Assembly: GCA_039621445.1 (NCBI GenBank)
Contig: CP154954.1
Location: 41,471,572-41,535,571 of the forward strand
Length of the DNA: 64,000 bases
Direction: 5' to 3'
DNA from: Euglena gracilis
Taxonomy: Eukaryota
The position numbers and the translations under genes were made by a program. Below the pieces are notes generated by a model. That model was not told the origin of the DNA. It ran no database searches and saw only the letters and a program-made list of their open reading frames with translations. Below, piece after piece: positions 4,015-62,282 of this stretch (positions are counted from its first letter, which is position 1; every line of letters starts with the position of its first letter).

Positions 4015-5830
4015 ATGGTGGACAAAAAATACCCCCCAGCAACATGTCAATTGATAGAAAATGGAATTCAACCCCCCTGGGTGAATCCCCCAAAATTGTC
4101 CACCCACCCAAAACCCAGAGCCAACCTAGACCTGAACCAGGCAGAAAAAATCCTGTTGGATTACGAAAAAACTGGGGCAGTGAAACGAGTTTGGGACTCA
4201 AAAACCCAGCATTTGATCCCATGGTTTTTAATTTCAAAACCAGAAGGGGGAACAACCAAGTGGAGAATGATCAGCGACTGCAGAGAAATAAATCAGCAGT
4301 TTCAAGTAAAACCTTTCAAGCTGGATCATATCCAGCACATTTTTCCAGTTTTGGAAAAAGGCCACTGGGCAGCAAAAATAGACCTAAAGGATGCCTATTT
4401 TCATATTCCATTACGTCCAGGCGTAAGGCCATTTTTAAGGCATCAGGTGGGGGGCAGACCTGGGAATTTCAAACAGGCTGCTTTGGGCTAAATGTAATGC
4501 CCCAAATTTCATGTCAGTGACGAAAACGTTCGAAAAGCTGTGGAGAAAAAGAGGCATCCAGGTGTTTATTTACCTGGACGACATTTTGCTGGTGGCCCCC
4601 ACCCAAAGCACATTTGCAAAATCACCTGAACAGAGTTGTCAAAGATTTGCTGTATTCTGGGTTCAAAATCAATGTAAAAAGTCCACCCTCCAGCCCACAC
4701 AAGTGGTAACCCATCTGGGTTTTCAACTGAACTACCAGGAAGGAAAGCTACAGGTGCCACCCCTGAAAGTCAAAACCATAAAAAAGGAGCTGGGAAAAAT
4801 CGTGAAAAAAGATTACATGCCAAAAAGGCAGTTGGCTGCCATTTTGGGCCAAATAAGATGCAACCTAATGGCCCTGCCCTTTTTAAGGGCTTTTACAGAC
4901 ACCCTGGCAATTTTTTTCGTGGCAAAGTCCACAGCCCCTTGGGACTCAAAACACCCCATTTTCCAGGAAATCAAAGCCCAATCAAGGGAAATAAAAATTC
5001 TCCTGGACACCTGGGGGGGCAGACCCTTCCCCCAAAATGCAACCAGAATGTTGCACTCAGACAGCAGCACCCATTCCTGGGGGGGGCTAGACATCCACAC
5101 AGGAGAAATTGTGCAGGAATTTTGGAGAAAAGACTCCATTTTGCACATCAATGTAAAGGAGCTCAGTGCAGCAATCAGCACTGTGAAAAGTTTGAGCAAA
5201 CCTGGGGAAACCGTTTCCTTTTCAGTGGACAACCAGGTAATTTACTTTTACCTAACAAAAGGTGGGGGCAGAAAGGACCCCTTCAACAAATGCTAAGACC
5301 ATTTTTCAAGTGGTGCATGGAGCACCAAGTAAACCTCCAAGTCAACTGGGTGCCTTCAAAGGAATGCCTAGCAGACCCCATCAGCAGGTGGGAAATGGAC
5401 AGGGGGGATTATTCTTTAGACCCCCAACTTTTTCAATGGCTCAGACAGCAGTTCAAAGATTTCATAAATCTGGAAACAGATTTATTTGCCTCACCAGGCA
5501 ACAAAAAACTGCCCAAATTTGTTGCCAGGTGGCCCCATTGGGAATCTACAGCGGTAAATGCATTACAATGTCCACTGGACAACATGGGGGATCTTTATGC
5601 AAACCCCCCAGTTCAATAATTCAAAAATTTTTACCAGGTTGAAAATGTATCCCCAGACCAAAGTTTTGATGGTCACCCCCTACTGGGATTCAGCCACACG
5701 GTGGCCCCAATTAATAAAAATGAAAGTATCAGGGACCCCCTGCCTGAAAATCACCCCCTACAGGGGTATGTTCACCAATTGCAGGGGGGAACAAATGCCA
5801 CCCCCCAGGTGGCCCCTGCTTTGCATGATT
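4015..5830 (+). pseudogene. DIRS pol: reverse transcriptase + RNase H + adenine methyltransferase-like domain (frameshifted)
   Basis: RT: KWRMISDCREIN, AKIDLKDAYFHIPL, IYLDDILL, THLG. RNase H: HSDSSTHSWGG, HINVKEL, VDNQV, WVPSKECLADPISR. MT: DLFASPGNKKLPKF...LYANPP...VLMVTPYW. Split over ORFs 2659-4491, 4511-5296, 4858-5619 and 5558-5908. Confidence 0.9.
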
Positions 5831-6344
5831 TGCTCAGGCAAATTTTGGAGGGGAAACAAATTCAGTTTAAAACCATTGAAGATTTCCTGGGGAAAAACCC
5901 CAGTTTAAAGGGTTATCAGAGTGCTTTTGCACTTCTGTGGGTAATTTTGGAAGAAATGGGGGTGCCCCCCCCTGAATCCACCACTGGCCAAGTGGCTGAC
6001 GCTTTAATACAATTATTCCAATTTTCCAAGGCCCAAGCCCGTAATGCCTATGGTGCAATGCTTTTGCTTCCTGGGTTTGGTGGGCTGAGATTCCACACTC
6101 TGTTAACCCCCTACAAGAGGCTTTGTAACCAAAAACTTGGAGAAGTATGGGGCATTTTGGGATCCCCTCCCAATCCTCCTGGGGCTGGCAAAGGCGCACT
6201 GATGCCCACTGATATTTGTACATTGCGAACACAACTGATTTTTCGTTCACGCATCCTCTGTTTATACCGATCCTCAGATTTGGCACAAGTCAAACGAACC
6301 ACCAGTGTGTTGGGTAGGGCACCCTACATCAAGATTAAGCGTAA
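5830..6344 (+). pseudogene. DIRS tyrosine recombinase, N-terminal part
   Basis: LRTQLIFRSRILCLYRSSDL (first catalytic Arg box) followed by YIKIKR, cut by the LTR insertion. Confidence 0.8.
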
Positions 6345-6855
6345 TGAAAACCATTTCTTGGTTCGAAGTTTTTGCGAATCCTTCGGCCTCGGCTGTTTTT
6401 TGAGGCGGCCGCCGGGCTTCGAAGCCTAACTTTTCAATCTTTTTCTTTTTGTCTTTGGGCTTTTTCCCTTGATCATTGAAATCCATTTATTCTTCAAATC
6501 ATTGTTCTTGCATGCACAATCAATTGATTTTTTTTGTAGTTTTGTATCAGTGCATTGGTTGGGTAAAGAACCCTGTGTGTGAGATTGGTTTGAAATTTAT
6601 GGGCTCGAGTGGGGACTTTCTTAGGTTAATTAGGGAAAATTGGCAAATCCTAGTGTGGAAAATAGGTCGGCCGGTCTTCAAAATTTCAAAGAATCGACCC
6701 AGCAAGGTCAAAAATTGAGTTCAGGCTTTCAAGCCGAAGCATAATAATCTTTTCCCTGGGTTAAATTCGACTGAAAACCAAAAAGTGGTATTTCAGTGAC
6801 TTTCGGCCCCACTCAGGCAAATTTTGGCCAATTTTTGGGTTAGGACCCCTTTACG
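6345..6855 (-). repeat. 3' LTR
   Basis: Direct repeat of 12215-12725. Preceded on the minus strand by the polypurine tract AAGTGGGGGAG (6856-6866). Confidence 0.92.
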
Positions 6856-9800
6856 CTCCCCCACTTAGAAAAATATCGGGGAGATTTTAAAAAACGTAAG
6901 TAAAAAAGAAGGGGTCCGCACAAAAGAAACAATTTGGTTTGCGAAAAAAAGGGGTATGTGTGCGGTTGGTAAGAGCAACGAGGGGGGGGGGGCAGCCCAA
7001 AGCGCCACGCCTTACCCCATGCGAGTGATGGTGGGGGGGGGGCAGCCCAACGGGCCACACCGCACCCCGGGGGGAGATGGTGCAACGGTGCAACAGGTTG
7101 GTGCGGAAAATCGGTGTGGGGCAACGGTGCGTGGGCAACGGTGCGGCGCTACTCAGCTGCGTACGCCGCCGCCGCAACCGCCGCCTCCCACTCGAGGTGG
7201 TTGCCACGGTACCGCGTATGCGTGAGTCGTGTGTTCACAATCACAATATGGTATGCGGTTTTTGTCCACACACCACACAACACTCATGCTTAGAATGACA
7301 CTTTGCGCGCACCCAAGGCGGGTCGGGTTGCAACTACGAAAGTTGCACGCCGAGCCACAATGGGGCCGAGGCATGGTTTCGCGTTTCCAACCCTTGCGAA
7401 CCGTTTTTTTTCTTGACCAACCGTCATTCAAGAAATCTGGGGGTTTGATAAGCTAGCTTTCCATCCAGGATTCTTTCTCTTGAGGAGCAAAATACTTCTA
7501 TTTTGTTGGTTGGGATCCCTTTTTTGTTGTGGGGGTTTTGCTTAGTCCCTTTTTAAGGAGCAAATTACCCTCTTTTTTTGATACGCTGCAGCTTTTTTAT
7601 TGGGAGGATTGTTGAATTTTGTGATCTGTTGCTTGTCGCGACCAAACACCAAAAATAAGAATCAACGAAAACAACCCCGCAAACCGCGGGATTGGTTCCC
7701 CGCAATGACAATTCATCACTTTTCCCACAACCGTAACGGGAATGTGACTTACGGCCGTTTTTGTGGGGGGGTCACATCAACCTGTGCCCTCCCGGGCCGT
7801 CTCTCAAATCTTGGCCCAAATTTCCACCTCTTAGAGGAAAAATGCGCTTGGAAAATCTGTCCACCTTTTGCTTTTCATAAAGCAAATCCAAATCTGTGAA
7901 ATTCTCACCTCCTTGCCATTCCAAAAATTGTTCCTCCGAAACCAGAATTTCTTGGGGGGTACCTACGGGAGCCTCACCGACGAAATCGTCGGCCATGTTC
8001 CATGCCTGGGCAAGTTTCTTTCCAAAAATTCTCTGAAAATTCTGCACACCGTCCTTTACGTGGGGGTTGGGCTCCACCTCCTCTCCGTAAATAACACCTT
8101 TAAATTCCCTGAAATTATGTCGGTATAACACATCGACTTTTCGTTGGAACGCCCCCCACTCACTCGCCTCCGAATGAGTGGGGCTCATCCCCATTTTGTT
8201 CCTTCCAACGTTATTCCTTTGTTCCACACAACACAACCCGAATGAATGAATAAGTTCCACCTCCCACACTTGCCCAATAAAAACGTCAGATTTTTTGCCT
8301 TGGGTAAAATCGGCAGACTCAAAATTTTCATTGGTCGACCGTTCAACCCATTTTTTCTTCTCTTTCCCCAGACGGGCGGAATAAAATTGAAATAATTCAC
8401 ATTTTTCCACTTGGGAAAAATGAGGGGGTGCAAAATGCGTTTCAACCCTCCCCTCTTCCTTTTCCATCTGAAAAGTGTCCACTTGTCCACCACCGTTTCC
8501 CAAAATCTGGGGTTCATCCAAATCCAAAATTCGCTTTCGTCATGGGTCATTCGTGGGGGGGTACCCTGGGGGACCAACACCAAACACTCCCCCTTTGGAA
8601 TATGCCTTTCCTCCTTCCTGCCAACCTGAAAATTGACCAAACCTGGACTCGGTATTTTTTATGTTGCGTCCCACCAAAAATGTTTCCACCAGAACGGTGA
8701 AAATGTCTTTTGGGCCCGGGGATGGTGAACTTGCACCAAAAACCCGGCCACAAACGGTTTGGCAAACCCTCCACCATTCCCCATATAGGAGTGGGCATTT
8801 TGTAGTCAAAGGGACTACATTGACAAAAATCAAAATTCAAAAAAATCAGCCCTTTCAAAAATTCACGGTCCTTCATGAGGCCGTTTCGGGGAATTTTAAT
8901 GAAAATTCTGGGTGGTTGTAAAAATTGGGCGTTGGAAAGTGTCATTTTGTGCGAGAATCGGCATACTCCAAATTTCTTTCACACATGGTGGGGTCTTGAC
9001 CATATTTCTTTTTAGGAATGGATGCAAAAGTCAAGTTCACCCCCCTCCAGATTTTGTTCCCATAAAAAGCATCAAAATCTTTGGTACTTTTGACCCAAAA
9101 AATCGCTGGACTTTGTCCACAAAAGTGTTTGACTGTGGCGCAAATATTTTCTGAAACAAATTTTGCGCTGGGGGCACTTGAACAAAAGTTCTGCCCCTGA
9201 ACCGTTGGCCACCACTTTTTCCTTGGGCAGTTTCCCAACATTTGTCATAAAAATTATACAATTTGGTCGTCCCGCCCCCCTTGCCTCGTCCTCCCCCCCA
9301 TGGGCATGGGGCCCAAAACTGAGTGCGGGGGGAGCTTGATTTGCATCCAGAATTTTTGCCCAACAATTAGAGGCATTATTCCCAACCTCACCACAACACT
9401 TACACGGTGCTCTGATTACACAGGTTGTGTAGTTGGGGTTTGGGAGCGGTGCTTCTTTCACCTCTGAAGAATTTTTGACAACGCCCCCCCTTCTTGAGGA
9501 TTTCTGGCAAAATTCTGAAAAATTTCTCGTTTCGCGTTTTCTGAATGAATTTGGTCCCCCCCATCCAATCGGGGGGTTGACTCGTTTCAGTGGGGGCACC
9601 TGGCCCTTTAAATTCCATCCCCCCTCCGTTTGTTCAAGACATCCATGTGCCATTCCCATGATTTGAGTGGGGGGGAAATGAAAATCGCTGGGGGAAAACA
9701 GCAATTTTTGTCCAATTGACCACCCATTGAGTGAAAGAAGCCAGTTTTTGTCCCTAGCCAACTCCGTTGTGATTTTTTCTTCGCTCTGGTTTTCATTCCT

Positions 9801-12196
9801 CCTTTCTTTGTGAAAAATCTGTGGAAGTTCCCGTCTTAGCACATGACAGGTGTCCGCATGAGATTTGGCAAAATTCCGAATCGTCAAAAATTCTGTCCCA
9901 AAATGTTTCCAATGATCCCCAAAAAACGTTGTTGAAAGTCTGGACAGTTTCGTTGTAAAAATCTGCCAACGAAAAGAAAATTCAGGCCTGTGACCTGAAA
10001 ATCTGTTGATTTTTGCCTCATTTTCCACCATGTCCCAAAATGGTGTACCAACAAAAATTGAAATCTGGCAACCAAAAACGGTGCCTTCCCCCATCATCCC
10101 TGCCCCTGCCACCATCCCTGTGAGCAAAATTTGCACCGGGACCCACACAGCTGGAAATTTTTCATGCGTTTCAACCGGAATTTCCAACACTCTTCGCTGG
10201 GGGGCACTCAAAAGGGGTATTGTTTGTGAGGCTGTTACTTCCAAACTTACGGAAGGAAAATCCACCATTCTGGGGGAAACAAAAAACAGAGTGAGGGGGT
10301 AAAAACTGTTGTGGGTTGGGTAATGGGAACGTGCAAAGTGTGGCTTTGCCAACAGGGGGTAGAGACCACCTTATGGTGCTCCTCCCCTTTGGGCAAGACC
10401 TCCACTTCGGCACTGTTGCCCAAAAACGCCGCTCCCCCTACCTCTGGGCCTAGGTTGCCCGAGTAGGGAGCGACGGGGGGATGTTTTGAAATTTTTCGAA
10501 AACCAACCCACTCACCTCTCGAGAGGGGATTGAGAGGGTATCGGTCTCCGCCTGCTTGGGTGGTCAAAGTTCTCTCCTACCCAAAAAGCCAAAACCCAAC
10601 CCATAGCTGGGGCTTGGGGTTGCTGCCGTTGTGCTGGGTGCTGCTGGGCCCCCCTGCACCGCCACCACAGCGGTGCGGGGGAGTGGGCCCCCGGACGCCG
10701 CCACCACAGCGACGCCGGGGTTGGGGGTCTCCCTTCCCGTGGTGTGAAAACAAAATTTGCGGCCAGTGATCTGGGCAGGGGTAAAAAACTGTCCACGTTG
10801 ACCCCCTTCCGCAATAAACTGGGCCCGTGTCCGTTTGAAAATTCTGAGACCCTTAATTGAGAAAAGCTTCGCTCAATCCCAATAACCAAAGTGGAATTTT
10901 CTACAAATCCCTGAATTTTCAGCAAAACTGCCTGAAACGGCGTTTCATTTGAGTTTTCTTAACCCAAAACTGGTAATTTCTCGTCAAAAAAGTTCTTGCC
11001 TTTTGGCGCTGTTGTCCAAAGTTAAATTGGGCTGGAATCCCGCTGAATTTTGATCACTTTGACCAAAGCGGTTTCCATTTTTGAATCTGGGGGATCTGCA
11101 GTTTTTTCCAACTTTGCACAGGGAAATTGAAAACATTCTTCGCCCAGCACTTCAAATTGAATTATTTTGTGCACTCTCCTCCTTGCACGTTCTTTCCAAG
11201 GATCTTTGTTTCCCCCCTCCATCTCCATTTCCACAGGGGGGGCTGAAATTTGTGTGAGGGGGACAATTCCCGTTTATCCTCCACCAGCCAAAAAGCCTGA
11301 TCCGTGCCCACTCCCAGCCTGGGGCAAAAGGAAAAAAATTCCAGTACGGAGGATTCCACCCATCTCCGACAAGATTCGCTGAAAAAATGTGAAAACCACA
11401 GCAGAAATCTGTAGCACAAGGGAAAGTCGTCCCGTACGGAGGGTATCACCCATCTCCGACCGTTTTGGCTGAAAATATGCCAAAGTCACAGGAAATTCCT
11501 GTGACGGGGAAAGGGAAAATTCACTTTTTTCACTTGAAAACTGAAAGATCCTTGGGTGAGACAACGCCTGGGTTTTTTTGTGGGGGAAAATACGTGCCAC
11601 TTTGTAAATGGGACCCTGCCCCCCACAATAAATCTTGCTGAAAATATTGATGAAAATGCATGCCTTTGGCAAAAACTGTGGGGAGTCTTGAGAAAATTCC
11701 AGAAAATTCTGGGTCCTCATCGTAATTCGTGCTGAAATTGGCCATGTTGATTGTGAAAAATCTTCTCGGGTCTAAAAATCCTGTGGTAACCCATGAAAAT
11801 CTGCTGGGAATTCACTTTTCTGAAAAATCTTTGGTGATGCGACAAGTAAATTTGGCAAGAATGATCTTTCTGAAAAATCAGCAGATGGAATGCGATGTGG
11901 CAACAAAATTTCCCCACATGACACCTTTGAATGCCTACAATTCTTCGGGTTCTTTAGAAGCCTTAGGGCTGTGGGTGGGGGTTGTATGCTTGCACACCAT
12001 GGTCGTGTGTTGTATGTGTCCGCCTGCTGATGTCCACCTGCTTCAATACCGCGCGCTGGGGGGCCATTGCAGGGCCCCCCTCCACCAGCTGCAGCTGTAA
12101 ATGATGTGCTTGTTTCTTCAGCTTCAATCTGTTTTGTCTTTCTTCCTTGTCTTTCTTCTGCTTCAGCTGCCTGGCGCGCCTCGCTCTGGCCGGAGA

Positions 12197-12214
12197 ATCC
12201 GGGTAGGACCTCCA
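12197..12214 (-). promoter_or_regulatory. Primer binding site, tRNA-Gln-like
   Basis: Minus strand TGGAGGTCCTACCCGGAT directly after the 5' LTR. Its complement ATCCGGGTAGGACCT-CCA resembles eukaryotic tRNA-Gln 3' ends. Confidence 0.75.
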
Positions 12215-12725
12215 TGAAAACCCTTTCTTGGTTCGAAGTTTTTACGGATCCTTCGGCCTCGGCTGTTTTTTGAGGCGGCCGCCGGGCTTCGAAGCCTAAC
12301 TTTTCAATCTTTTTATTTTTGTCTTTGGGCTTTTTCCCTTGATCATTGAAATCCATTTTTTCTTCAAATCCTTGTTCTTGCATGCACAATCAATTGATTT
12401 TTTTTGTAGTTTTGTATCAGTGCATTGGTTGGGTAAAGAACCCTGTGTGTGAGATTGGTTTGAAATTGGTGGGCTCGAGTGGGGACTTTCTTAGGTTAAT
12501 TAGGAAAAATTGGCAAATCCTAGTGTGGAAAATAGGTCGGCCGGTCTTGAAAATTTCAAAGAATCGACCCAGCAAGGTCAAAAATTGAGTTCAGGCTTTC
12601 AAGCCGAACCATAATAATCTTTTCCCTAGGTTAAATTCGACTGAAAACCAAAAAGTGGTATTTCAGTGACTTTCGGCCCCACTGAGGCAAATTTTGGCCA
12701 ATTTTTGGGTTAGGACCCCTTTACA
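12215..12725 (-). repeat. 5' LTR
   Basis: Direct repeat of 6345-6855. Minus strand begins TGTAAAGGGG and ends ...TTTTCA. Confidence 0.92.
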
Positions 12726-12729
12726 GTAC

Positions 12730-13165
12730 AGGACAAAAATTCCAAAAATGGGAAAGGGTGGTGTCCATTCCCCAATGTCCCCAAATAAGCCCATTTCATT
12801 TAATGATGTGCTATGTTTCTGCAACACGTTTATTCGTCAGACCTGGGGGCCCCCTGCTGATTTCATTAAAACCCCCCTTCAGGGCCATAAGTGCAGACAC
12901 TGTTGCTTCCATCACAAAAGATTTTTTGGCCAAGCATGGGGTGACCCCCCAGGTGTGGGTGGCCCACTCCACCAGAGGAGCAGGAGTCGGTTTACTCAAA
13001 AAATTGGGCCTTTCTGCCCAAGAAGTTTGCGAAATTGGCCAGTGGAGGGGGGTGGAGGCTTTTACAGCCCACTATCTACGACTTGGTGCCCAAGGTGCCC
13101 TGGAACATGCCCTGGCCCCCCTAATTTCAGTGCACAATCTGGCCTCACAAGGGCAAAGTGCGGAG
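12730..13165 (+). pseudogene. DIRS tyrosine recombinase, C-terminal part
   Basis: AHSTRGAG...EIGQW...AFTAHYLR (H-x-x-R, W, Y catalytic pattern). Removing 6345-12729 rejoins the frame as KIKRKGQKFQKWERVVSIP. Confidence 0.88.
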
Positions 13166-16115
13166 ACACCCCCCAGGGGCAAGAAGTCACGTCGCCAAGT
13201 CGGAGCAGCATCGTCAGCCAACCCCGGCGAGGCGGCACTAAGCGGGACCTCCTAACCCGGCGCACCCAAACAATCCAAACAACACCGCCGGCGAGCAAGG
13301 CATGGCCTCACAAGGTCTTTGTGCCCTCGGTGTCCCTTCCTCCCTTGTCGTTTTTGCTCGAGGGAGCACGAAACTCCGGTAACAAAAAGCAGTAAGAAGC
13401 ACCCCCAGCGCACGCACAAACACGCCAGAGCAGAACAGCCGGCAAGGAAAGCAGGACCTCACCATCTCGCAGTGCGGAGCCCGACTGGTCGGCAAGGAAA
13501 GCAGGACCTCGCCATCCCGAAGGGCGGAGCCCGAATGGTCGCCTTCGTTCTAGGCTCTGCTCCTGCCTTCTGGGTTGTCGAAGGTCAAAATTTTGGAATC
13601 AGCCAACTCCGGCGAAAAAGGCACTAAGCAGCAACGCCTTTCCCAGCGCAGCAAAACTATCCAAGCAACACCATCGGCAAGCAAGGCATGTCCTCACAAG
13701 GGAAAAGTGCGGAGCCCGAGGCGTCTGTCCCTCCCTCCCTTGTGGGTTTTTCCTCGAGGGAGTGCGGCAATGATGGGCTTCCCCGGAAAGGGGGGGTCCT
13801 CCGGTCTGGATGGGTGGTAAGACCCTGGCCCTTGAAAAAAGGTGCATGTTGCTGCCTTGCCTAGCTCAAGTTCTTAAGAGGGTTCGTAAAGGGATTGCAA
13901 TGACGAAATCGCAAGAAAGCAAACAGCCAATGGTGCACATAAATGGTTCAAGGAAACTTGGGTAAGAATATCCCCACACGGGATTCCTGACTGTAACATA
14001 AACAAACACACTCAGGCACAAATGTGTGTTGTGAGTTTTGTGCATGCATGTGGGGTTGCGTGGGTGTGTGCAGCGCGCGCATAAGGCGTGCATATGAGAG
14101 TGCTTCCATGAATGCGTGCATATATGTGCGTTTATGTGTGCTGATTTTGTTGTTTTTTTTTTGTGTTCTCAGATGACTGCTGGAATAACTTCAATTTATG
14201 TTGCGTCATCATGTCAAGGCGGCAGAGCGGAGGGTGGATGGATGGATGGGTGGGCAGAGGTCATCAGGAGAAGCAAAGAATATGGGGACAAATGACACAC
14301 CATGCAGACAGCGGCAGGGGCCATGTGCACAATCTGGACAAATATGGACAAGCTGTGGCCACACATCGAGCCGCTGCCCCGAAAAAATAATAGGAAGAAG
14401 CGGCTGGCAGAGGCACAGCGGGCAAATGAACAGACACCATTTGTGGTGGGTGAGAGTGAAGGGCATGGTCAACTGACGGACAGCAGCTCTCACCTCCAGG
14501 CGGGGGTTTCTTCACGTTGCCACTGAGGTCTCTCTGTGGGTCCTGGAAAGAACCAGGCAAATGTCTACGAGGACCTCTGGGCTGCTGCCGCAATACCCTA
14601 GTGCGTTGGTATGTGGCTGGAAACCAGGTTTTTTTGGGGCAAGTTGGGATCAGTTTATGACAAAGAACGGTAGAAAATGCACACCAATTATGGCAGATAA
14701 TGCCCCCAAAATTGCCCTAAATTCGGCCCATTAGACCACTCCTTCCTGTGAATCAAATTCACACACCAATTCATACTTTTTTTTATTATACCAAAAATAG
14801 CGAAAAATGGCCCCAAAAAGAGAGGAAACGCCCCAAAACAGATTCAGATGGCCCAAACTTGACCATGCAGTCGGGAATGGGCAATTATACTGCGGAAAAC
14901 TCCTGCAGAACCTCGAAATATGCGCTAAATATGCGAAATATGCACAAATATGCGATTCTTGGACAAAAAAAGTGAAATATGCACTAAATGTGCGAAATAT
15001 GCGCAAAATATGCACTCTGCATATTCCCTCCCCCCCTGTCTGATGGGCTACTGGTATCCTAATCTGCACAGGCGCAGGCACAGCCACCTTACAGGGGACC
15101 CGAGTGTCCCCGCAGCCAAGCCATCGCACCCATCAGCCGCCCATAGGGGCCGGAGCCCTGCCTTGTCAGCAGGGCTGTCCAGGGAGTCCTGGTCGGGGGT
15201 CGACCCCCCCCCCCCAGAAGGTGTGGATTAGACAACCCTCCCTCCCAAATAACTTTGCAGTGTCCTAAAGTTTTGTGTGCCTGAAGAACTTTGCAGGGGG
15301 GAAAGCTTAAAAAGATCGGTCCAAATAACTTTGCCCCCCTCCCTTTTCAAGGAAAAACCGTGAAAAATGATGCATCTTTTTTGGGAAATCAGGAGGTGGC
15401 AAGGACAAAAAATCATCTGAAATGCCATAATAATCTATTATTAGATGAATATAAATATTAAATAATATCACAAATATTAGTGAAACAAATTTCTTTTAAG
15501 AAGCGTGGTGAATCAATCCATCAATGGTTTTGGGTACTGCCCAAATAAATTTGCAGGGGGTTGGGGCCAAAAAGATCGGTCCTAACTTTGCAGGGGGCAA
15601 AATTATTTGGGGGGCGGTTACCACCGCCACACCACAGGAGGGTTCCTGGTTCCCGGTCAGCCCTGCTTGTTGGGGATGGGGCGGAGGCTGGCCTGGCCAA
15701 TGGTTCTGCCGGCGCCATTTCCGCAGATGATGCCCTGAGGCAAGACGGGTGCATGGCCTACACCGCGGCAGCCCCAGTGCAACGTCCAGACTTCTTTTTT
15801 TATCAACCCCTGGTGGGAGTGCCTTGTGCCGTGGGGTGCCTGTCCATAGCAGGCAAACCGTCCCAAGAGTGGTCAGTTTTGGGCTCGGCTGCCTGCCGAA
15901 CCAGACAAATTATCCTTGTGGGCCATTTTCGCGCCCCCAGCACATTGGCGCTGGGGGTGGAAGGCTGTGCTACAGCAGCCCCCGACCCCTCCTGCCTGCA
16001 TCCACCCTCCAGGGGGGGGGGGTGCGAACTTCCTGATAAAAAGCCCAGCAACAACCTTCTCGGTGGGAGACACAAAGAAAATGGGCCAGCCGGCCAGCGG
16101 CAGCACGGGGCGCAC

Positions 16116-16289
16116 CGCTGCGGGGGCGGCAGTGGCGGGCGGTCGCCGGCGAACCGCGGGGGGAACGACGTGGCCCCGTCGAAGATACAGAGCCGGCGCG
16201 GGCCCTCTGCCTCCGGGGGCGAGGGAGGGGCGGGGGGTGGGGGGAGGGGGGCGGTGGGCGACGGCTCTGCCTGGCCAGGGGGCGGACCC
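16116..16289 (-). CDS. FDGA-motif exon (type A), phase 2-2
   Basis: ccacAG|...GPRRLCIFDGATSFPPRFAGDRPPLPPPQ...|GTgcgc; 174 nt. Confidence 0.75.
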
Positions 16290-16978
16290 CTGTGGAGGAT
16301 GGGACGGGCGGGGGGGGGGGGGGGCGGGTTGCCTGTGGTTGAAATGGGAGGTGTCAGAGAGGACCATGTGTGATGTGCACGTTTGTGGATAGGGTTCAAC
16401 ACTTGGGGAACCCTCGCTGGTGCGAAGCAACAGAGGCAGAAACATCTGCAGAAAGACATTTGCGTTGGATGAAAACAAAATGCGAATTCCTGTGGTTTTC
16501 TGGAATGATTTCTCAAGGCGATATCAGCTTTTAGGTTTGAAAATCATTTTCTTTTGCTCATCCAATCTCCTCGATTTCAACTTTCTAAAAATTTGATCTT
16601 TTCTTCAAATATGCCATGATGCAAAAAAAAACAACTGCCAGATGAAATAGAACCATATGGTCACATGACACCTGTGCCCAAAGGCATTGCCATTATATAT
16701 TACCACAAATCACAAAATAAAAAAGTGCGTTATGAACTTGTGGGTCCAGAGATGCGCAAATGGACAGGCCACACATTCACATTCCACAAAAACATTCCAC
16801 GTGCACGCTTGGCCATCGCCCTTTTTCCAGTTCTGTGATTAACTGGAACTGGAACTGGAATGTGGGAAAAAAAACATGCCGACCAGGGGAACCGCACCCA
16901 ACCGGCACCGGGTGCAGGTTGGTTGGCTGTTTGCGTTGGCGTCTCCATCGACCAGCCCTGCAGGGCCCAGCGGCACAC

Positions 16979-17116
16979 CGTGGCCCGCACGCGGCGGGCT
17001 CCGCAGCAAACCGCGGCTCAAACGACGTTGCGCCGTCAAAGATGGCGAAGCGCTTGGGCCTGGCGGCCGCCCCGGCGACCGGCCCCGCGGGGGACCCCAC
17101 GCCAGCCCCATGCCCC
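16979..17116 (-). CDS. FDGA-motif exon, phase 2-2
   Basis: ttctcAG|...AARPKRFAIFDGATSFEPRFAAEPAACGP...|GTgtgc; 138 nt. Confidence 0.75.
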
Positions 17117-18449
17117 CTGAGAAGTGGGCCAGGCCGTCAGATGCTCATTGATTTCCAAGCTGCATTTTGCAGGTCATTTTTTGGGCAATTGTCCAGCGTG
17201 TCCAGTGTGTCCAGCCTGGCCCAATAGGTGTTCATCCCCCCTCCCCGGGGGGGACTAGCTGGCCAGCACAAATAAATAGCCAGCCCAAAATTTTAGCCCT
17301 AGCTCAACAACTCCCCCGATGCCTTAAAACGCCGCTGGGAGCGTTGGTTCCGCCACCCTCCCGACCACAGGGACAATCCAAGGGTTGATTTCAGAAACAG
17401 TACCCCCCCAAGCCCAATGAATACCAAGGCGACAGTCGACATGGTCCGGACAGGGGACGTTCAGGTTGTATGGGCATTTGCATCGTTGTGAAAGGCAACA
17501 AATGACTTGACGGTCCGGACACCCACTGTTTGTTGGGCAAGGGGTCCATTTTGACACGGGGGGAGGTACCTTTCAGGCACAGTTCAGAATCCCTCGGCGG
17601 GGTGGGGGTGCAAATCGCTTTCCCAGGACCCCCAAAAAGCTCAAATTCAAAAATTCGAATTCAAAAATAAAACACATTTTGCCGGGATCAAGCCAAAGAG
17701 AGCAAAACCCGAGCCAGATCGTGGTGATTGGCCAAAGCAGGCTTCCGAACTCTCCATGTGTGCCCGGGGGGGGGGGGGGGGCTGGTTCACCCCAGGTCTT
17801 TGCTCTATTCGGAAGAGGGGAGTCGCTACGACCCAAGCCAACTTTAACCCAGCGGGGCTCAACTTTAACTGGCAATCCAATAAAGTGGGGGGGGGACTCC
17901 CCTCCCTCCATGGGTTCCTTTTTTGACGCTGGTTCACACGCGAATGGCAACAGATGTGCTCATGAAAATAAAAGTTTTTGGGGAACTCCAAGTGGGCGCC
18001 CATTGGGCTTTTTTTTACGTTTGGGCTCAAATATTTGAAGGACGTCATCCCCTTGAAAAATATGAAGAGAATTTGCAGACGATTTTTTTGGTGTTCAATG
18101 CATTATACACCTGCTTGCGTTCCCAGTCCAATTGGCAAGTGGAGTGCACATGATCCTGGGGGTGGGGGGCACCCCCAGGTCTGTGCGCGACCCCCCCAGG
18201 GAGGACGGAGACAAAAATGTCTATCGAATACCAATAGCATACAACAGAGGCAAACAACCTTTTTTTTTAATGTGATTTGAATGATTTTTATGTGATTTAT
18301 GTGATTGGGTAAATCATCGGATGTGAGAGGGAAAAAAAGCGTTAAATCTCAACGGTGCCTCCAGGTTTTCAGGACATTTGTGAAAAATAATGGAGTGGGT
18401 CGGTGGGTGGGTGGATGGGTGGCAGAAAGCGGCCACAGGTGGCACACAC

Positions 18450-18593
18450 CCAAGCGGCGGGTGAGGAAGGTCTGCAGCGAAATGAGGTGCGTAGGAGGTT
18501 GCGCCGTCGAAGATCGCGAAGGCCGGAAGACGGCGGACGCCGCCGGTGATCAGGGGGCCGGCGGAGGGAGAGCGGGCTGAGGTGGGGCCGCTG
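18450..18593 (-). CDS. FDGA-motif exon, phase 2-2
   Basis: ccctcAG|...GVRRLPAFAIFDGATSYAPHFAADLPHPPL...|GTgtgt; 144 nt; NAGNAG acceptor. Confidence 0.75.
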
Positions 18594-18923
18594 CTGAGGG
18601 GGGAGGAGAGGGGCGACCGAGGCCAGGGCCCATGAGCCCATTTTATTTTTCACAACGTACAGGGGCTGCCCGCAGCACAGGCTGGAGAAGCAGTGTGGAA
18701 TGCGGCCCTGGTTGGGGCGGGTGGGATGGTGGGGCCACTGCCAGAGGGGAAGGGGGGCGGCCGGCGGGACCCTCGGCGGACCCCCTGAGTCGGAGCAGAC
18801 GCATGTTGCCCGACCGTCTGGATTGTCGTCGACGGTACTGTCAGACAATGCGTGTGCCATGGATTGGAAAGAACCGGAAACAGGCAGGCACGCCGGGCAA
18901 GCCAGAGGCTGCACGGGGCGCAC

Positions 18924-19088
18924 CGCTGCGGGGGCGGCAGTGGCGGGCGGTCGCCGGCGAACCGCGGGGGGAACGACGTGGCCCCGTCGAAGATACAGAG
19001 CCGGCGTGCCTCCGGGGGCGAGGGAGGGGCGGGGGGTGGGGGGAGGGGGGCGGTGGGCGACGGCTCTGCCTGGCCGGGGGGCGGACCC
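18924..19088 (-). CDS. FDGA-motif exon (type A copy, 9 nt shorter), phase 2-2
   Basis: Near-identical to 16116-16289; ARRLCIFDGATSFPPRFAGD; 165 nt. Confidence 0.75.
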
Positions 19089-22000
19089 CTGTGGAGGATG
19101 GGACGGGCGGGGGGGGGGGGGGATGGGAGGCAGAAAGGGAGATCAGAGAAGGGGTTACTGTCACTGTCACTGTCGCAGAAACAACAAATTGTGCAAAATG
19201 TGTGGGTGAGAGAAATGAAAATCATAAAAATACAAAAAAAATACACCAAAAACATGCAAAAATGGCTCCAAACTCAACAGAAATTAAATGGAATTAAAAG
19301 GAAAATATCAGTTTGAAGAAATAAAATTTCAAAAAAATGAAGAAAAAAAAACAGAAATGGTAAAAAAAAATGCGAAAAAAAGCAAATCAACGAAAAAAGC
19401 GCCAAAAAGCAAAACAAGACGTGAAAAGAATCGAGAAAAATGCGCAAAAATGCGCATTTTGGGGTAGCTTTTCCTAAAAAAAAATGTGCAAAAAATGCGC
19501 AAAAATGCAGAAAAGTACGAAACGCATTTCCCCTTCCCTGGGAAGCTAGTTGCATGGAAAAACTTTCAGGGGCTCCCGCGGGATGTGCACTTACTATACT
19601 ATATACTGGAACAGTTTTGGAACTCTCTCCAAAGAAAAATCACAGGGTTTACTCCCAAACTGGTGAAGGGGAGACCAAAGCATTTCTTTCGTTTTATTTG
19701 AGCATATTTTGCGATCAGGAGTTTTCAAAAATTAGAAAAACCATCTTTTCTGCTTTTTTTTTGGGTTAAAAATGCATGAAATAAGACTTGCACCTTTTGT
19801 TTGTTTCTATTTATATGTTTGCATGTTTTTGAGGGTCTACATTACGTCCCCCCCCCCCCCCGAAACGACTCCTAATTTGAGGTTTGACCTCCAAATTTTG
19901 ATTCTGAAATTCGACCACGACTTATTTACACTTCAATTTTTTTGCCATCCTTAGCCTCATTGCCCGACCCTGGGAGAGTGGGATGGCATGGCAATTCCTT
20001 TCTGTCTAGTCTAGTCTGTCAACCAACAGCAAGAGGGGCATCTCACTCCCCTACAAAAGTAGGCAATTCCATAGCAGTGGGAAATCTCATCCAGTGTTGA
20101 ATTTTGAAATCCAAGTTGTTCCATAATTATGTGAGTTATTGCTCCAAGGGGTATGGGATTTCATGGAACTCTGCCAAAAATTCTCATCAGAGCAAATCCT
20201 TGTCACAGGCCCCACGGGAAATTTTTGTTCTCGAGAATATGCCAGGGTCCCTGGTATGCCAACCTGTTGTTAAACGAAATTTTCAGGGTCCCAGGCGTCG
20301 ACCGGTCAGCTGACAGTCTTCCTGGGGTTGGGGGAGGGGAAACTTCCGGAAATGGCATGCATCTGTCCTTGAGAGGGGGGAGGGGCGGCTTTTTGCGTTC
20401 TTTTTTTTTGCATTTTTTTTTTATTTTGGCAAGATTTATGCTTTTGTGTGTCCTTCTGTATTTTTTTTTTGCACCCATTTTACCCTTACGCCAAAATTTT
20501 TGTCATTTTTGTCATTTTTCCATTTTTGGTCAACAAATTGCAATATTTCCCCCCCAAAATTTCACGGGATAGAGTCGGAATAGCAAGTATCATGAAAAAG
20601 TGTAATGTCAAAATCATGAAACGGTGCTGTGAAAAAAGATTTTGTTGTATCTCAGGAATTTTGGGTCTTCCCAGTGTGTTAAATGTGGAAAAAGTGCGAA
20701 ATATTTAAAAATTCTTCACATACAGTGAGGAAAAGTTTCGCTTTGACTCAAAAAGTCAAAAAATAAGCACACAAAAAAAACCAATTGGTTGGATTTTTCA
20801 AAAAAAAATCAACAAAACAACAAACTTGAAGAATGCAAAATGAAACAGATATTCTATGAACTTGAAACAACAAAACATAAAAAAATAATCACAAAATACA
20901 AAAACATGCTTGCGGGCCAAAAAAACTAAGTTGTGTTAAAAACCCGCCAGAAGGAAAAAAATAAAAAGAAAAGAAAGCAGAAAGAAAAGAAAGACTACAA
21001 TTCTCTTGGAAGAACTACTTCTGAATTGAAAACACACATTTGTCTTCCTCTCTCCCTTGTTCTTGCTTTTTGAGGAAAAAAAACCCTCAATTTTGGATGC
21101 ATTTGAATTGGGGCATTCTAATTCTTTAATGCATGGGTAAACTGTGGCCAACGTCACTTCCAGCTTGGTGCCACTGGTCGGCCCTGGTCGACCCTGGTTG
21201 GCAAATGGTCGGCCGCAGGTGGGGGTCAGCATATGTCACGACCGTACAATACACTTTGAAACACATTTGCCCACTTTTCTTACTTTTACCCACTTACCCA
21301 ATTTCGACCTCTTTTGCCCGTTTTTGGGGGGGGACAGCTTTTTGGCCAATTTTGGCCATTTAAGCCAATTTTGGGTGCGCTGTTTTTTTGGCCACTTTGT
21401 GCACCATTGGCCACGTTTAGGCAACTTTTGGTCCTTTTGGCCAATTTGGCATTTTTTGATGGCCTCTGTGCTTTTTGTCCACTTTTGGCCACTTTTGGCC
21501 ACTTTTGCCGACTTTTGGCCTTATGGCCACTTTCAGGCTGCTTCTCCTGCTTTTACCACTTTTGGACACTTCGTTGCCACCAGGAATTATTTTTTTAAGG
21601 AGCCTTAAAAAACGTGAAAAAAACTTTAAAAAAAGTGGTTCTGGAATTTTTCGAATTTTGAGCGAAACAGAAGTCTCAAAATATTGGCAAAAACAGGCCA
21701 ACTCCAGGGGAAAAAATGATGATTTCTTGCATCGCTGAACATTGTCCATCCACCCAAAACTCAAAAAAAAATGTGTTTGATTTTCAACCTGGACCGACGT
21801 TGGTTCGATGCCCGGATGGCTTTTTGACCGTCCATGAAAGATAGGCGCCTTAAAGATTCTTAATACCTTAAAAAACCTTTAAAAAACCTTCAAAAATCTT
21901 GAAAATTTTGCCTTAAAAATAACAATGCCTGGTTGCCACCTTTTTGCTGCTTTTTTTGACTGCCTTTGGCTACCTTTTACTGCTTTGGCCACTTTTGTCT

Positions 22001-23348
22001 CTTTTGCCTCTTTTGCACGCATTTTACCATTTTTTTTTACCCACCTTTGCCACCTTTGGGCCACTTTGGGCTTCTTTTTGTTGTGTTTGAAGTCAAAAAG
22101 CAGCAACAAATGGCCACAAATCAACAAAAGTGCCAAAAGCAATCGAAAGCAGTGACTGAATAATGACCAAACATCAGGAAATGGGTCAAAACAACAAAAA
22201 AAAACGAACAAGATTTGGAAAGAGTGGCCAAGAGCGGTCAAAAGACAGCAAAAAGTGGCCAGAAGTTGGCACAAAAAAAAACAGTCAAAAACAACAAAAA
22301 AATGATAAAATGGCCTAAAAGCGGCCAAGGTGGTAAAAATGGCCAAAAGTGAGCAAAGGAGCACAGGGCTGTACGGGAAGGCCTGGTGGGGGGGGGGACC
22401 CCCCACCACAGCATTTTCACAAATTTTTGGGTCGAAAATTGGTGCTCCGGGAAATACGGGAGGAGCTGGTGGGGGGTGGGGGTGGTCGACTCCCCCCACC
22501 CACCACCCTGTGGTTGGGGTGGGGTGGTCGACCCCTCCCACCCACCACCCTGGCTGTTTGGCCGATTCCCGCACTGCCCTGGCCCAAAGCTAGCCAAAAG
22601 CAGTCAACAGCAGCAAAGAGTGGCCAGAAGAAGCCAGAAATGGAACATGACAGGACAAGTAGGTACACCTGGGTAAGACTTCCGTGTTTCCCAAATACTG
22701 CCTCTGCGGCTGACAAACTGCGAAGTCGGCCCTGGTCGCCCCTGGTCGGAACCCCACTTATGGTGGCCTTGAAAATGACCCAGCCCTGGTCGCACCTGGT
22801 CAGCCCTGGTCAGCCCTGGTCGGCTGTAGGTGCCTGGTGGTCAACAAAAACTGATAAAAGGATGTAACAAAAATTCTTCTGTCTTTCAAATTTGTTTATT
22901 TCCAAATTATACTTCATGTTAGTAAACCTTTTCCTCCTCGTTTAGACTTTGTGAGGGAAAAAACCCTCTGGGATCTTGTGCACCAACCCATAGAGGACAC
23001 AAAGAAAATTGTGAGGCACAAATAAACTGACAAATATGCAAATAATAATAATAAAACCCCCCAAAATACTCAAAAAAGCGAAAAGGCATGAAAGACAGCG
23101 AGCAAATAGGCGAATGTCTCTGAGGCGGAGCATCGAAAGAAAAACTTCCGTGATTTCGGCCAAAAGAGGGCCGGGGGTGGGTCTGGAGCCCCCATACTAC
23201 TTTCCCCCTGAGGGTGGTCTGGACCCCACAGGCGACCTACCTCAAAACCGAAGGCTTCCCATTCATCCCTGTCCACCCCACAAGGGAACAAGGAGAACCG
23301 CAGCAAAGAGAGATGGGCCAGCCGGACAGCGGCACTATTGGGGCGCAC

Positions 23349-23522
23349 CGCTGCGGGGGCGGCAGCGGCGGGCGGTCGCTGGCAAACCGCGGGGGGAACG
23401 ACGTGGCCCCGTCGAAGATGCAGAGCCGGCGTGGGCCGTCCGCCTCCGGGGGCGAGGGAGGGGCGGGGGGTGGGGGGAGGGGGGTGGCGGGCGACGGCTC
23501 TGCCCGGCCGGGGGGCGGACCC
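23349..23522 (-). CDS. FDGA-motif exon (type A copy), phase 2-2
   Basis: GPRRLCIFDGATSFPPRFASD; 174 nt; AG/GT flanks. Confidence 0.75.
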
Positions 23523-23714
23523 CTGTGGAGGATGGGACGGGCGGGGGGGGGGGGGGGGCGGGGTGCCTGTGGTTGGCTGTCCTGGGCCATAGCAGAGCAC
23601 GTTATCTGCCCAATGTATCCGCCAGCAAAGCTTGAGATCCGCCACCAGGAGTGGGGGTGGCGGGCCGCTGTGTGCACTGCTGACCCACGCGATGTGTTGC
23701 TGACCCTGGCGCAC

Positions 23715-23842
23715 CGGCAGGCAGAGGGGGGGCGGAGCTGGTGGAGGGCGACGTCATCGACGAAGCGGCTGGGGAACGTGCATGCCCCGTCGTACATCAC
23801 GAAGCGACGGCGGCCAGGCGACGGGGTTGGTCGCCCAGGCGC
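23715..23842 (-). CDS. FDGA-motif exon (acceptor uncertain)
   Basis: PSPGRRRFVMYDGACTFPSRFVDDVALHQLRPP; donor GTgcgc in phase 2. Confidence 0.65.
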
Positions 23843-24039
23843 CTGTGGTCGACTCAACGCCCCCCCCCCCCTCCGGCTCCGGGAGCAGGAGGGGTAAGGC
23901 GTTGGACACGCAGGCCAGCCTTGCGTAGTGTGGTGGGTGTGTTGGGGTGTGGTAGGGGGGCGTGTTGTGCATGGTGTGGCGTGGCGTGGAGAGGTGTGGT
24001 GTGGTGCGGCGAGGTGATATGGCCTCCCTTTCAACCACG

Positions 24040-24164
24040 GTGGCGGCCCGGGGGCGGGGATGGGCTGTGGGGCAGACTGCCGTCGGGGACGAAGCGCGGG
24101 GCAAAGGTGCAGGCGCCGTCGAACACCGCAAAGCGGGGGACGGCGGGGGTGGCTGCTGGCAACC
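24040..24164 (-). CDS. FDGA-motif exon (donor uncertain)
   Basis: cccgtcAG acceptor, then AATPAVPRFAVFDGACTFAPRFVPDGSLPH (frame not in the ORF track). Confidence 0.65.
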
Positions 24165-24499
24165 CTGACGGGCTGGCCAGGGAGAGTTTGGGGGTGCACA
24201 TGCCAACCCCAACAGCAGGGTACTAAGTGAAGGGCGGACGGGGTTCGACCCCCGGGGGGAGGGGGGGGGGCGCTGGAGATATTATTTTGTGTCAGAAAAA
24301 CAAATGCCTCAAAAATCTTGCTTTTCGACACCTTTGGGAAAAAATCAATAAAACCACCTCAGACTGAAAACAGATGCTCATATGGTTGCACCCATCCTAG
24401 CTTCTCCTCTGCCAAGGATGCTGGCTTCTCCGCCCCCCCCCCCCCAATCAGCACAGAGCCACGTCGGCCACAGCTGGGCCGGCCCTTCAGGGGCCACTT

Positions 24500-24661
24500 G
24501 CCCGCTGTCTGCTGGGCTGGAACGGCGGCGGTGGGCGGCGAAGCGCTGGGGGAAGCTGCACGCCCCGTCGAAGACCACGAACGTCTTCAGCTGCCGCGGG
24601 TCGGGCGGGGGCTGGGATGGGCGCCCCCCCCCTCCCGGGCATTCGCTTTCGCCGGGCCGCG
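24500..24661 (-). CDS. FDGA-motif exon (donor uncertain)
   Basis: cccccAG acceptor, then PPPDPRQLKTFVVFDGACSFPQRFAAHRRRSS. Confidence 0.65.
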
Positions 24662-26710
24662 CTGGGGGTTGGGGGAGGGCCCAATGGTCCGCGGCTGGAT
24701 GGACGGCCCGCCACCTCTCCATCAAGGCGGAATACAGAACAGTGGTGTATGTGTTGGCACCAGTGGCGCGACCCGGACACCTTCGAGAAGTTTGGCCACC
24801 GACCCTGACAGCTTCCTGGCAAGGCGATCCCTGGGGCAATAGCCACAGCCCCGGAATGTGTGTGACTCCGTTCGGTGGCCGAATTACGGATGACTGCGTA
24901 CCCAATGAACCACTTGGATTACCTTTTCGGAGGCTGGTTGCTCATCGGCTGTGAACTTGTGGACACCATCTCTGCAGAAATGGCATCCCCTCTATCACTT
25001 TGCTTTGAATGGGCCGTTGGTGCGCCATGAGTATGCTTGCTGCCTGGGACCAACTTCGAGGACAGGGCTCCCCATCCCATCCCCATCAATGCCAGGGGGC
25101 GACGTGGGCCAGGCAGCAGCCGCACACCCAACACGACGCCTGCGAAGAAGAAGGCACCGCTGGCCAATACAGTGGCGTTCCCAAGACACAGCGATCGGAC
25201 TGGCTCCCCGGAAAGCCATTCAATGCAGCCCATTTTCAGGGAGAAGTTTTTTCACAAAGTGCAGAGATCCATTTTTCTCAGCAGCTTCAGCAAACCAGTC
25301 CCTTGAAGGTGCAATACAATTACACGACCAATCATGGTTCTCCTACCTCCCCTGGGTACGAACAGCAAATGCAAGTGAATGCAGGTTTGAGAGTGCCATA
25401 CTATTACCAAGGTTGGTGTGCATTTGTCTTTTGTGTGTGTTTGCGCCTTTGCCGTGAATGTGCATGTGAATGCCGGGGGGGTGTGGGTGGGTGGGTCTGG
25501 TGGATGGGTGGATGCCTTTGATAGCATGAAATGTTGGCAGGCTCGCACTCCAGGCAAGGCGCATACAAATCATCCTCGTCTGCGGGGGACACCAGCAACG
25601 TGGGCAGCGCCACCGGCTGGGGCGAGGGGTCCCCGGAGACCCGCCCGGGCAGGCAGCCCATGGACGGAGGTGGAGACACGGCAACGCCCCCAAACAACGT
25701 AATGCAGCACCACACCCAACTCTACGGAGATGACCCCCAACTTACCTCCCGGTTTTGATTATTTACGCCTGTTATTTTGGGGGGCGCCCAAAAGAAAGCC
25801 TGGGAGGGGAACATTTGAACAAAATTATCCAAACTTAAAAATCACCACAAAATGCTTCACCAATTCCTCCAGATCTTATTTTTTTGCAATATTCAAACTT
25901 AACGGGTTTTGGAACTCGTAAAAGCTCAATGTCATCCATTTCTGTGTTTTTGGATTTATCCCGTGATTTTTCCACCCGGTTCCCTTTGTCTGCACCATAG
26001 TGTGGAAGGGGGGCATTAATTGGGCAGCCAAAGTCTATCCTAAGGATGGGGTATTGTTTGTGGTAGGGTGGTATTTTGGAGACCATTGGGGGTTTTCATG
26101 AGAAGGTTACCCTACCCCATGACCGTAGGTTGCCTTGACTCCGGCTTCGCTACCACCAAAACCTTTCAGATGTGTTTGAATGGTCCAAAAAAAAACACCA
26201 CCCTGGCGACGGTGGTGTTTGGGGTTTGCTTTGGGAATTGACCACTGCCTGGGTTGTGTTGTGTTGTGTTGCCCAAAAAGCGGCAAAACCTCTGAACCAG
26301 AAAAATGAAAAGGTACCCCAGGACGGCCTACCGGATGGATTAGACAGCATGCGTCCGTGGCCTGCCCGGCGGCTGTGGCTCAGGTCGGCCTCCGGAGCTC
26401 CGACGACCTTCGTGGGCCTGCGACGGGCGCAGTCACAGGATACCTGTTGACCTGTTCCCCGAGGGCATTGTGGATGGCTGACCGCCACCCAGGCCCCCCC
26501 TCACACCATACCATGGGGTGCCTGGGGTTCCCGGTAGCCCTACGAGAGCCTGCCAGTCCTGTACGTGGTATGGGAACCGCTCAGCAAGGAAAATGGATCC
26601 GAAGCCAAAGCGCGACACAGTGAAAAACAAGTTGTTTCTGCTGTGTTGAACGCTTTCTTCCTTGCATTCCTCCCCCCTCCCCCTCCCGGAGGGCAGAGCT
26701 GTGGGCACAC

Positions 26711-35279
<8,569 letters not shown>

Positions 35280-39265: not shown

Positions 39266-62282
<23,017 letters not shown>

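Follow-up and report, generated by a model that had tools for sequence, protein, structure and literature searches.

A 64,000-nucleotide (nt) stretch of the Euglena gracilis genome (contig CP154954.1 of the assembly GCA_039621445.1, positions 41,471,572 to 41,535,571; hereafter the window) carries on its minus strand a candidate gene for a repeat protein, in which a short aromatic peptide recurs eight times. A six-frame scan of the window with the regular expression [FY]DG[AS]..[FY] found eight matches, all of them on the minus strand, the F/Y codons being located at 24572, 24123, 23794, 23416, 18991, 18511, 17040 and 16183; there were no matches outside 16163-24572. The full motif can be written as [RK][RK]-[FL]-x-[IVM]-[FY]-D-G-A-[TC]-[ST]-[FY]-x-x-[RH]-F-[AV], and its eight copies, numbered here along the minus strand, occupy 16151-24581 and occur nowhere else in the 64 kb. 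The alignment indicates that D, G, A and the last F are invariant, that the RR or KR pair directly precedes the motif in copies 3, 4, 5, 7 and 8 (copies 1, 2 and 6 have no dibasic pair there), and that Cys is present in three of the eight copies, with no CxxC. Copies 4, 5 and 8 possess the same 14-residue peptide, and each of the others has its own version (listed with the exons below). The eight copies were cut to 32-residue slices and combined into a profile, which scored them at 53.7-60.5 bits, while the next best of all 2025 stop-to-stop frames of at least 15 amino acids (aa) in the window reached 6.3 bits; the conserved columns of the profile are confined to about 17 residues.

Since copies 4, 5 and 8 are near-identical, the motif is represented by six independent versions (copies 1, 2, 3, 4, 6 and 7). 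The pairwise differences between them, summed over 18 codons, were distributed as 76:91:147 among codon positions 1, 2 and 3. Invariant residues are spelled with synonymous codons (GGC and GGG for Gly; GCA, GCC and GCG for Ala; TTC and TTT for the last Phe), and the Ser/Thr column contains AGC, TCC, TCG, ACC and ACG, including both families of Ser codons, AGC and TCN. The switch between the Ser codon families and the excess of third-position changes indicate that it is the peptide that has been conserved, and in the minus frame; an antisense reading is disfavoured, because it would put most changes on first codon positions. Judging by these substitutions, the motif peptide is selected at the protein level in the minus frame. 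The preliminary description, whose list of eight module peptides is identical to that obtained here by translation and alignment, had suggested that the peptide is kept while codons and flanks diverge, and that selection acts on the protein; the codon counts, with two or three codons for each invariant Gly, Ala and Phe, agree with both suggestions.

The modules constitute neither one continuous frame nor eight free-standing genes, because copies 3, 6 and 7 have no in-frame ATG upstream and stops close the frames of copies 2, 6 and 7 at a distance of 30-46 codons from the motif; copies 3 and 4 lie within one 373-codon open frame. Listing the in-frame AG and GT dinucleotides around the modules revealed a common acceptor pattern, where one leading base follows a C-rich pyrimidine tract and AG, and a common donor pattern, where two trailing bases are followed by GTGCG or GTGTG. 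With a slash marking the splice site, the acceptor is ...cccgtcccatcctccacag/G for copies 4, 5 and 8 and ctcctcccccctcag/C for copy 6. Six of the eight modules (four of the six independent ones) carry both signals, namely, a phase-2 GTG[CT]G 42-102 nt downstream and a phase-1 pyrimidine-rich AG 45-130 nt upstream; copies 1 and 2 fit the GT-AG signals only partly. Both signals occur together at 1.5% of random minus-strand positions, whether these are drawn from the region or from the entire window. In a study of 28,337 introns of E. gracilis, the 5' consensus of GT-AG introns is given as GTGTG, together with a distinctive cytidine-rich polypyrimidine tract (PMC11170887), and the signals predicted around the modules fit these features of conventional introns. 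The earlier assignment of one module to each exon is supported for the six modules bounded by splice signals in a shared phase; as for copies 3 and 4, which share the 373-codon frame, their separation into two exons was deduced from the splice signals. The predicted exons and the longest predicted intron are as follows:

24472-24722, minus strand: predicted exon 1 (inferred boundaries), with the start ATG at 24720-24722, copy 1 FVVFDGACSFPQRF at 24540-24581 and the donor CT/GTGGCC.
24078-24172, minus strand: predicted exon 2, with copy 2 FAVFDGACTFAPRF at 24091-24132, the acceptor ...ctggccag/C at 24172 and an uncertain donor.
23715-23919, minus strand: predicted exon 3, with copy 3 FVMYDGACTFPSRF at 23762-23803 and the donor CG/GTGCGC.
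23349-23522, minus strand: predicted exon 4 (174 nt), with copy 4 LCIFDGATSFPPRF at 23384-23425, the acceptor ...cccgtcccatcctccacag/G and the donor CG/GTGCGC, inside the block 23304-23575.
19089-23348, minus strand: predicted intron (4260 nt, GC content 0.43), with A+T-rich simple repeats and a dispersed repeat; alternatively, a spacer between two four-module genes.
18924-19088, minus strand: predicted exon 5 (165 nt), with copy 5 LCIFDGATSFPPRF at 18959-19000 and the acceptor and donor as in exons 4 and 8, compared with which it has an in-frame deletion of 9 nt.
18450-18593, minus strand: predicted exon 6 (144 nt), with copy 6 FAIFDGATSYAPHF at 18479-18520, the acceptor ctcctcccccctcag/C (19 pyrimidines of 20) and the donor GG/GTGTGT.
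16991-17116, minus strand: predicted exon 7 (126 nt), with copy 7 FAIFDGATSFEPRF at 17008-17049, the acceptor ...cacttctcag/G and the donor GC/GTGCGG.
16116-16289, minus strand: predicted exon 8 (174 nt), with copy 8 LCIFDGATSFPPRF at 16151-16192 and the acceptor and donor as in exon 4.

The ATG at 24722-24720 is the sole Met codon in the open frame upstream of copy 1. Several boundaries allow variants: exon 1 may also end at a nonconventional boundary at 24480, and the ends of the following intron (24471-24173) pair at -7.5 kcal/mol, which gives this intron a mixed conventional/nonconventional look; the donor of exon 2 is either the phase-1 GT at 24078 or one of the nonconventional sites only, the frame being stopped at 24031-24033; the acceptor of exon 3 is located either at 23919, which suits the phase of exon 2, or at 23876 (17 pyrimidines of 20). 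An in-frame stop precedes the acceptor of exon 7 by seven codons, and, if the donor after 16116 is unused, the frame of exon 8 continues to the stop at 15803-15805. The GT-AG chain 24722-24472, 24172-24078, 23919-23715, 23522-23349, 19088-18924, 18593-18450, 17116-16991 and 16289 onward is open for 548 codons. The predicted product comprises about 445-550 aa (Pro 23%, or 25% without the tail, Ala 13%, Gly 10%, Arg 10%; isoelectric point (pI) 9.9), with the motifs at residues 48, 98, 155, 217, 272, 322, 368 and 420 and spaced by 46-62 residues. The GC content of the model is 0.77 (0.83 at third codon positions) and that of the introns 0.43-0.68; the eight predicted exons fall on GC islands of at least 70%. 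The predicted intron that separates exons 5 and 6 contains one more GC island (0.71), at 18661-18840, across which the frame of copy 5 is open; this island could be motif-free extra coding sequence, with the donor of exon 5 then lying elsewhere. An A+T-rich dispersed repeat at 19182-19533, inside the 4.26-kb predicted intron, has a counterpart at 38767-39131 (73% identity over 377 nt). In our estimation, the sequence makes a good case for the eight modules as real spliced coding exons, and the locus is probably an orphan, lineage-specific repeat gene, predicted from its sequence, with a familiar architecture and a motif seen nowhere else.

The 4.26-kb stretch suggests another arrangement, in which copies 1-4 and copies 5-8 would belong to two neighbouring four-module genes and the A+T-rich DNA between them would be intergenic. 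The gap at 19089-23348 far exceeds the 158-1333 nt of the other predicted introns, has a GC content of 0.43 and contains dispersed repeats, while the frame of copy 4 runs to a stop at 23237-23239 and the frame of copy 5 has in-frame Met codons upstream. These Met codons, however, are located in T-rich sequence outside the conserved block, and the GTGCGC donor of exon 4 and the C-rich AG acceptor of exon 5 are the same as those of the internal exons, with matching phases; besides, PMC11170887 reports E. gracilis introns as long as 8197 nt. We consider the arrangement in two genes unlikely, although it is the strongest of the competitors of the single eight-exon gene.

Copies 4, 5 and 8 share blocks of 217-272 nt with 92.6-94.8% identity: 16073-16341 with 23304-23575 (272 nt, 92.6%), 16093-16323 with 18901-19122, and 18915-19122 with 23340-23556. 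This identity is lost within about 50 nt of the edges of the predicted exons, and the introns on either side show no relationship; at the DNA level, the remaining five copies are old and have diverged. The pattern of identity most likely points to homogenisation of copies 4, 5 and 8 by gene conversion between older paralogous exons, and not to fresh segmental duplication.

The surroundings of the locus raise the question of whether the modules could be relics, i.e., an untranscribed or decaying array of exons or cargo of a mobile element, with no present cellular function. The locus is situated between the copies of a large direct repeat (1-454 versus 25055-25507 with 97.6% identity, and 1535-3015 versus 25511-27018 with 95.9% identity), a reverse-transcriptase-like frame is located at 2647-4491, and the database searches found no expressed product. 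On the other side, all eight motifs are intact, with D-G-A invariant and change mostly synonymous; the splice signals are retained in phase; no degenerate ninth copy is present in the window; and all the modules have a single orientation within 8.4 kb of the 64-kb window, whereas fragments of mobile elements would be scattered, and Pfam searches with the motif-bearing frames matched no transposon family. Such an origin of the array appears somewhat less probable still than the two-gene arrangement. The large repeat may extend past the left end of the window, and the gene could be flanked by two copies of one element or form part of a duplicated unit about 25 kb long. The upstream repeat begins 333 nt from the proposed ATG, a distance that fits exon 1 as the first coding exon and is also compatible with a larger duplicated unit running off the window.

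An AlphaFold2 model of one 32-aa module, computed with the eight-row alignment, had a mean predicted local distance difference test (pLDDT) score of 73.6 and contained neither helix nor strand; no part of the predicted protein was found to contain a folded domain. The pattern of a scaffold bearing short linear motifs (SLiMs), with short conserved islands in biased and unconserved spacer, is recognisable in the about 17 conserved residues, the Pro content of 23-25% and the structureless one-module model. Multivalent SLiM scaffolds are known in Pro-rich disordered proteins, such as formin FH1 regions, actin regulators of the WASP-WIP type, GW182 with its W-motifs and FG nucleoporins; these proteins resemble the predicted product in having short aromatic islands repeated in Pro-rich unconserved spacer, with presumed avidity or clustering, but the motif of the window contains no WH2, FH2, GW or FG signature. 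One module per symmetric exon is also the plan of the PEVK exons of titin and the 54-bp exons of collagen, where every small exon encodes one unit and is flanked by introns of identical phase, so that duplication keeps the frame; the window gene differs from them in its motif, organism, splice signals (GTG[CT]G and the C-rich tract) and the secondary homogenisation of three exons. In view of the Pro content and the one-module model, the earlier idea that a disordered scaffold carries a multivalent binding module is reasonable, while no result points to the cytoskeleton or pellicle, which it had offered as examples.

The following scheme can be proposed. One small symmetric exon may have been duplicated repeatedly, giving rise to a lineage-specific minus-strand coding gene, in which each copy would occupy its own exon of 95-250 nt, most of them preceded by a C-rich tract and AG, followed by GTG[CT]G and having one leading and two trailing bases. 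Joined from the ATG at 24722, the exons would form a single open frame for a basic protein (pI about 9.9), and copies 4, 5 and 8 would have been homogenised later through gene conversion tracts of about 220-270 nt. The product would be an intrinsically disordered scaffold and the eight motifs would act as repeated short docking sites or 'stickers'. A strand-like F-x-Phi-F, a D-G turn and A-x-S-F are elements that can build a small hairpin, and the motif may adopt such a structure (F-x-Phi-F, D-G turn, A-x-S-F) upon binding; together, the motifs might bind one another or several molecules of a single folded partner, providing avidity or clustering. For the eight-exon gene combined with a disordered multivalent scaffold, we see the chances as evenly balanced; the mechanism of a multivalent ligand, derived from analysis of the predicted product, is more tentative and falls somewhat short of an even chance. 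A bolder variant, rather unlikely as it stands, is that the modules represent a new class of SLiM (basic pair, Phi-x-Phi-Ar, D-G-A, x-[ST]-Ar, x-x-R-F) recognised by a putative euglenid-specific folded reader domain, the protein being a multivalent organiser (e.g., of a cortical assembly or a condensate) produced by duplication of exons and held uniform through intragenic gene conversion.

The same peptides might instead be structural units, e.g., β-hairpins at the D-G turn, packed into one folded repeat domain, since a hydrophobic strand followed by D-G and another hydrophobic strand is typical of a tight hairpin and the spacing of 46-62 residues is fairly regular; the spacers, however, are unconserved and variable in length, with 23-25% Pro, and the single-module model contains no strand, which makes this organisation improbable. 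Still less credence can be given to a multi-copy peptide precursor cut after RR or KR into peptides of about 14-17 residues ending in xPRF. Known multi-copy precursors do carry one peptide in each repeat unit, and five of the eight copies have RR or KR directly before the motif, but the pair is missing in copies 1, 2 and 6, no conserved cleavage site follows the motif, and the predicted N-terminus, MERWRAVHPAAD..., has no hydrophobic signal sequence.

A number of observations weigh against the eight-exon gene with a disordered binding scaffold. Exon 2 has no donor of the common phase and the donor of exon 1, GTGGC, deviates from the consensus; the low-information splicing code followed by nonconventional Euglena introns (PMC12501133) allows 3-31 frame-keeping alternatives per junction, so the boundaries are not fixed. 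Open frames are cheap in sequences with a GC content of 70-77%. The tail after 16116 has a GC content of 0.59/0.67/0.63 by codon position versus 0.72-0.89 at position 3 in the exons, and, therefore, the true 3' exon may lie elsewhere. The gene is flanked by repeats resembling transposable elements. A model of 32 residues says little about disorder of the whole protein, and the binding function is something that we infer. Finally, the profile search against 1,835,955,588 protein representatives revealed no true relative, and three protein homology searches (residues 160-345 of the 373-aa frame against proteins of 205-653 aa, the exon 4 product against 101-2000 aa, and the exon 1 frame against 62-200 aa) gave no match at the thresholds used, although such blanks are neutral with regard to expression.

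The profile search returned 12 matches at E ≤ 1e-3, the best with E = 1.1e-7 and none at 1e-10. Seven of the nine matches inspected contain contiguous MF-x-GA-x-SFNQ...W-x-VS-x-VT-x-M repeats and all seven belong to DUF285 (PF03382; 199-611 bits, E ≤ 2.4e-59); P0001 and P0004, the remaining two, are unrelated repeat proteins aligned to other parts of the profile. Derivation of the motif from DUF285, the folded BspA-like leucine-rich repeat with contiguous MF-x-GATSFNQ units, is suggested by these best matches, but it is the least credible of all the explanations considered, because the E-values are sums over 3-7 short matches per protein, none of the seven window frames matches PF03382 even at E ≤ 10 (gathering score 25 bits), the overlap is limited to the heptapeptide FDGATSF, after which the window copies continue with x-[PQS]-[RH]-F-[AV] and lack the N-Q...W-x-[VT]-S-x-V-T-x-M of DUF285, the R-F, the basic pair and the invariant D are not DUF285 features, and units of about 25 aa follow one another there whereas the window units are 46-62 aa apart in Pro-rich spacer. 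FDGATSF is treated here as a look-alike, since both the conserved positions and the spacing differ from those of DUF285.

None of the seven motif-bearing frames matched a Pfam family at E ≤ 0.1, one noise match having E = 0.29. Among contigs of Joint Genome Institute (JGI) metagenomes, 74 pattern matches were found, of which tblastn confirmed none, and literature searches, which covered texts outside supplementary files, revealed no paper with FDGATSF, FDGACTF, FDGACSF or IFDGATS; an Rfam search with the whole window gave no matches. The preliminary description had not recognised the motif and had advised searching databases with a profile of the eight copies; this search, together with Pfam, matched no described domain and, among the matches inspected from the 1.84 billion representatives, found nothing closer than DUF285 look-alikes sharing a heptapeptide. 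A language-model feature search in the ESM Atlas yielded a best score of 0.84, below the lead threshold of 0.9, for clusters carrying DCC1-like proteins (PF04134); the likeness to the N-terminus of this thiol-disulfide oxidoreductase is probably just the string [FY]DGxC, and the family was rejected in view of the sub-threshold score, the presence of Cys in three of the eight copies, and the absence of CxxC and of a Pfam match. PAM2, the ligand of the MLLE domain of PABP, has the consensus Leu/Phe/Pro, then Asn/Ser, Ala at +4, Phe/Tyr at +7 and a Pro-like position at +9, and its hydrophobic-x3-Ala-x2-Phe-x-Pro spacing overlays [IVM]-[FY]-D-G-A-x-x-[FY]-x-P; it was also rejected, as the Asn/Ser position is occupied by F/Y in all eight copies, Pro is found at the last place in six of eight, and D-G and the terminal R-F have no counterpart in PAM2. 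The motifs FFAT, RVxF, ABBA, D-box, FGDF, WH2 and the pyrokinin FxPRL, compared by reading the alignment, were rejected as well, since each requires a position that the window copies do not have.

Should the gene be expressed, a poorly annotated protist genome would gain an unannotated, lineage-specific protein, and the locus would provide a clean case of a one-exon-per-module repeat protein with symmetric phases and later gene conversion at the level of exons. Once found, the partner of the motif would define a new motif-domain pair, as the motif has no match in Pfam, the 1.84 billion representatives and the searched literature. As the locus shows, euglenid genes missed by homology-based annotation can be recognised from conserved peptide islands combined with GTG[CT]G and C-rich-tract signals. 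The gene remains a prediction, and it has no bearing on any long-standing question.

In the first copy of the large repeat, 455-1534 is additional sequence of about 1.08 kb with internal repeats. Long plus-strand frames occupy 2647-6429, and the first of them (614 aa, 2647-4491) matches RVT_1 with E = 4.1e-5 and 23.8 bits, below the Pfam cut-off of 29.6 bits; about the first 370 nt of this frame are in common with the frame 26650-27519. The run 2647-6429 is probably a retroelement. Two 511-nt direct repeats at 6344-6854 and 12214-12724, which lie 5.9 kb apart and are 97.5% identical, resemble the terminal repeats of an element, and the minus-strand frames between them (7772-8539, 9072-10370 and 11772-12389) have no Pfam match. 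The plus-strand frame 12686-13255 contains ...HSTRGAG...W....F..HY..., which may resemble the C-terminal catalytic region of tyrosine recombinases of elements of the DIRS/Crypton type, and Pfam matched nothing there at E ≤ 0.1. Searches of Pfam with 10 + 10 further long frames of the window revealed only sub-threshold RVT_1 and two matches at noise level. Decamer arrays, e.g., TTTTGGCCAC at 21473-21533, are located near the dispersed repeat of 19182-19533 and have similar stretches at about 31.1, 50.0 and 51.1 kb. Microsatellites of the (CA/TG)n type at 28625-28880, 32712-32795, 42461-42699 and 60445-60625 are 79-92% identical to one another and translate to His-Thr and Cys-Val runs, and a direct repeat of about 310 nt (40951-41258 and 56980-57274) has 87% identity.

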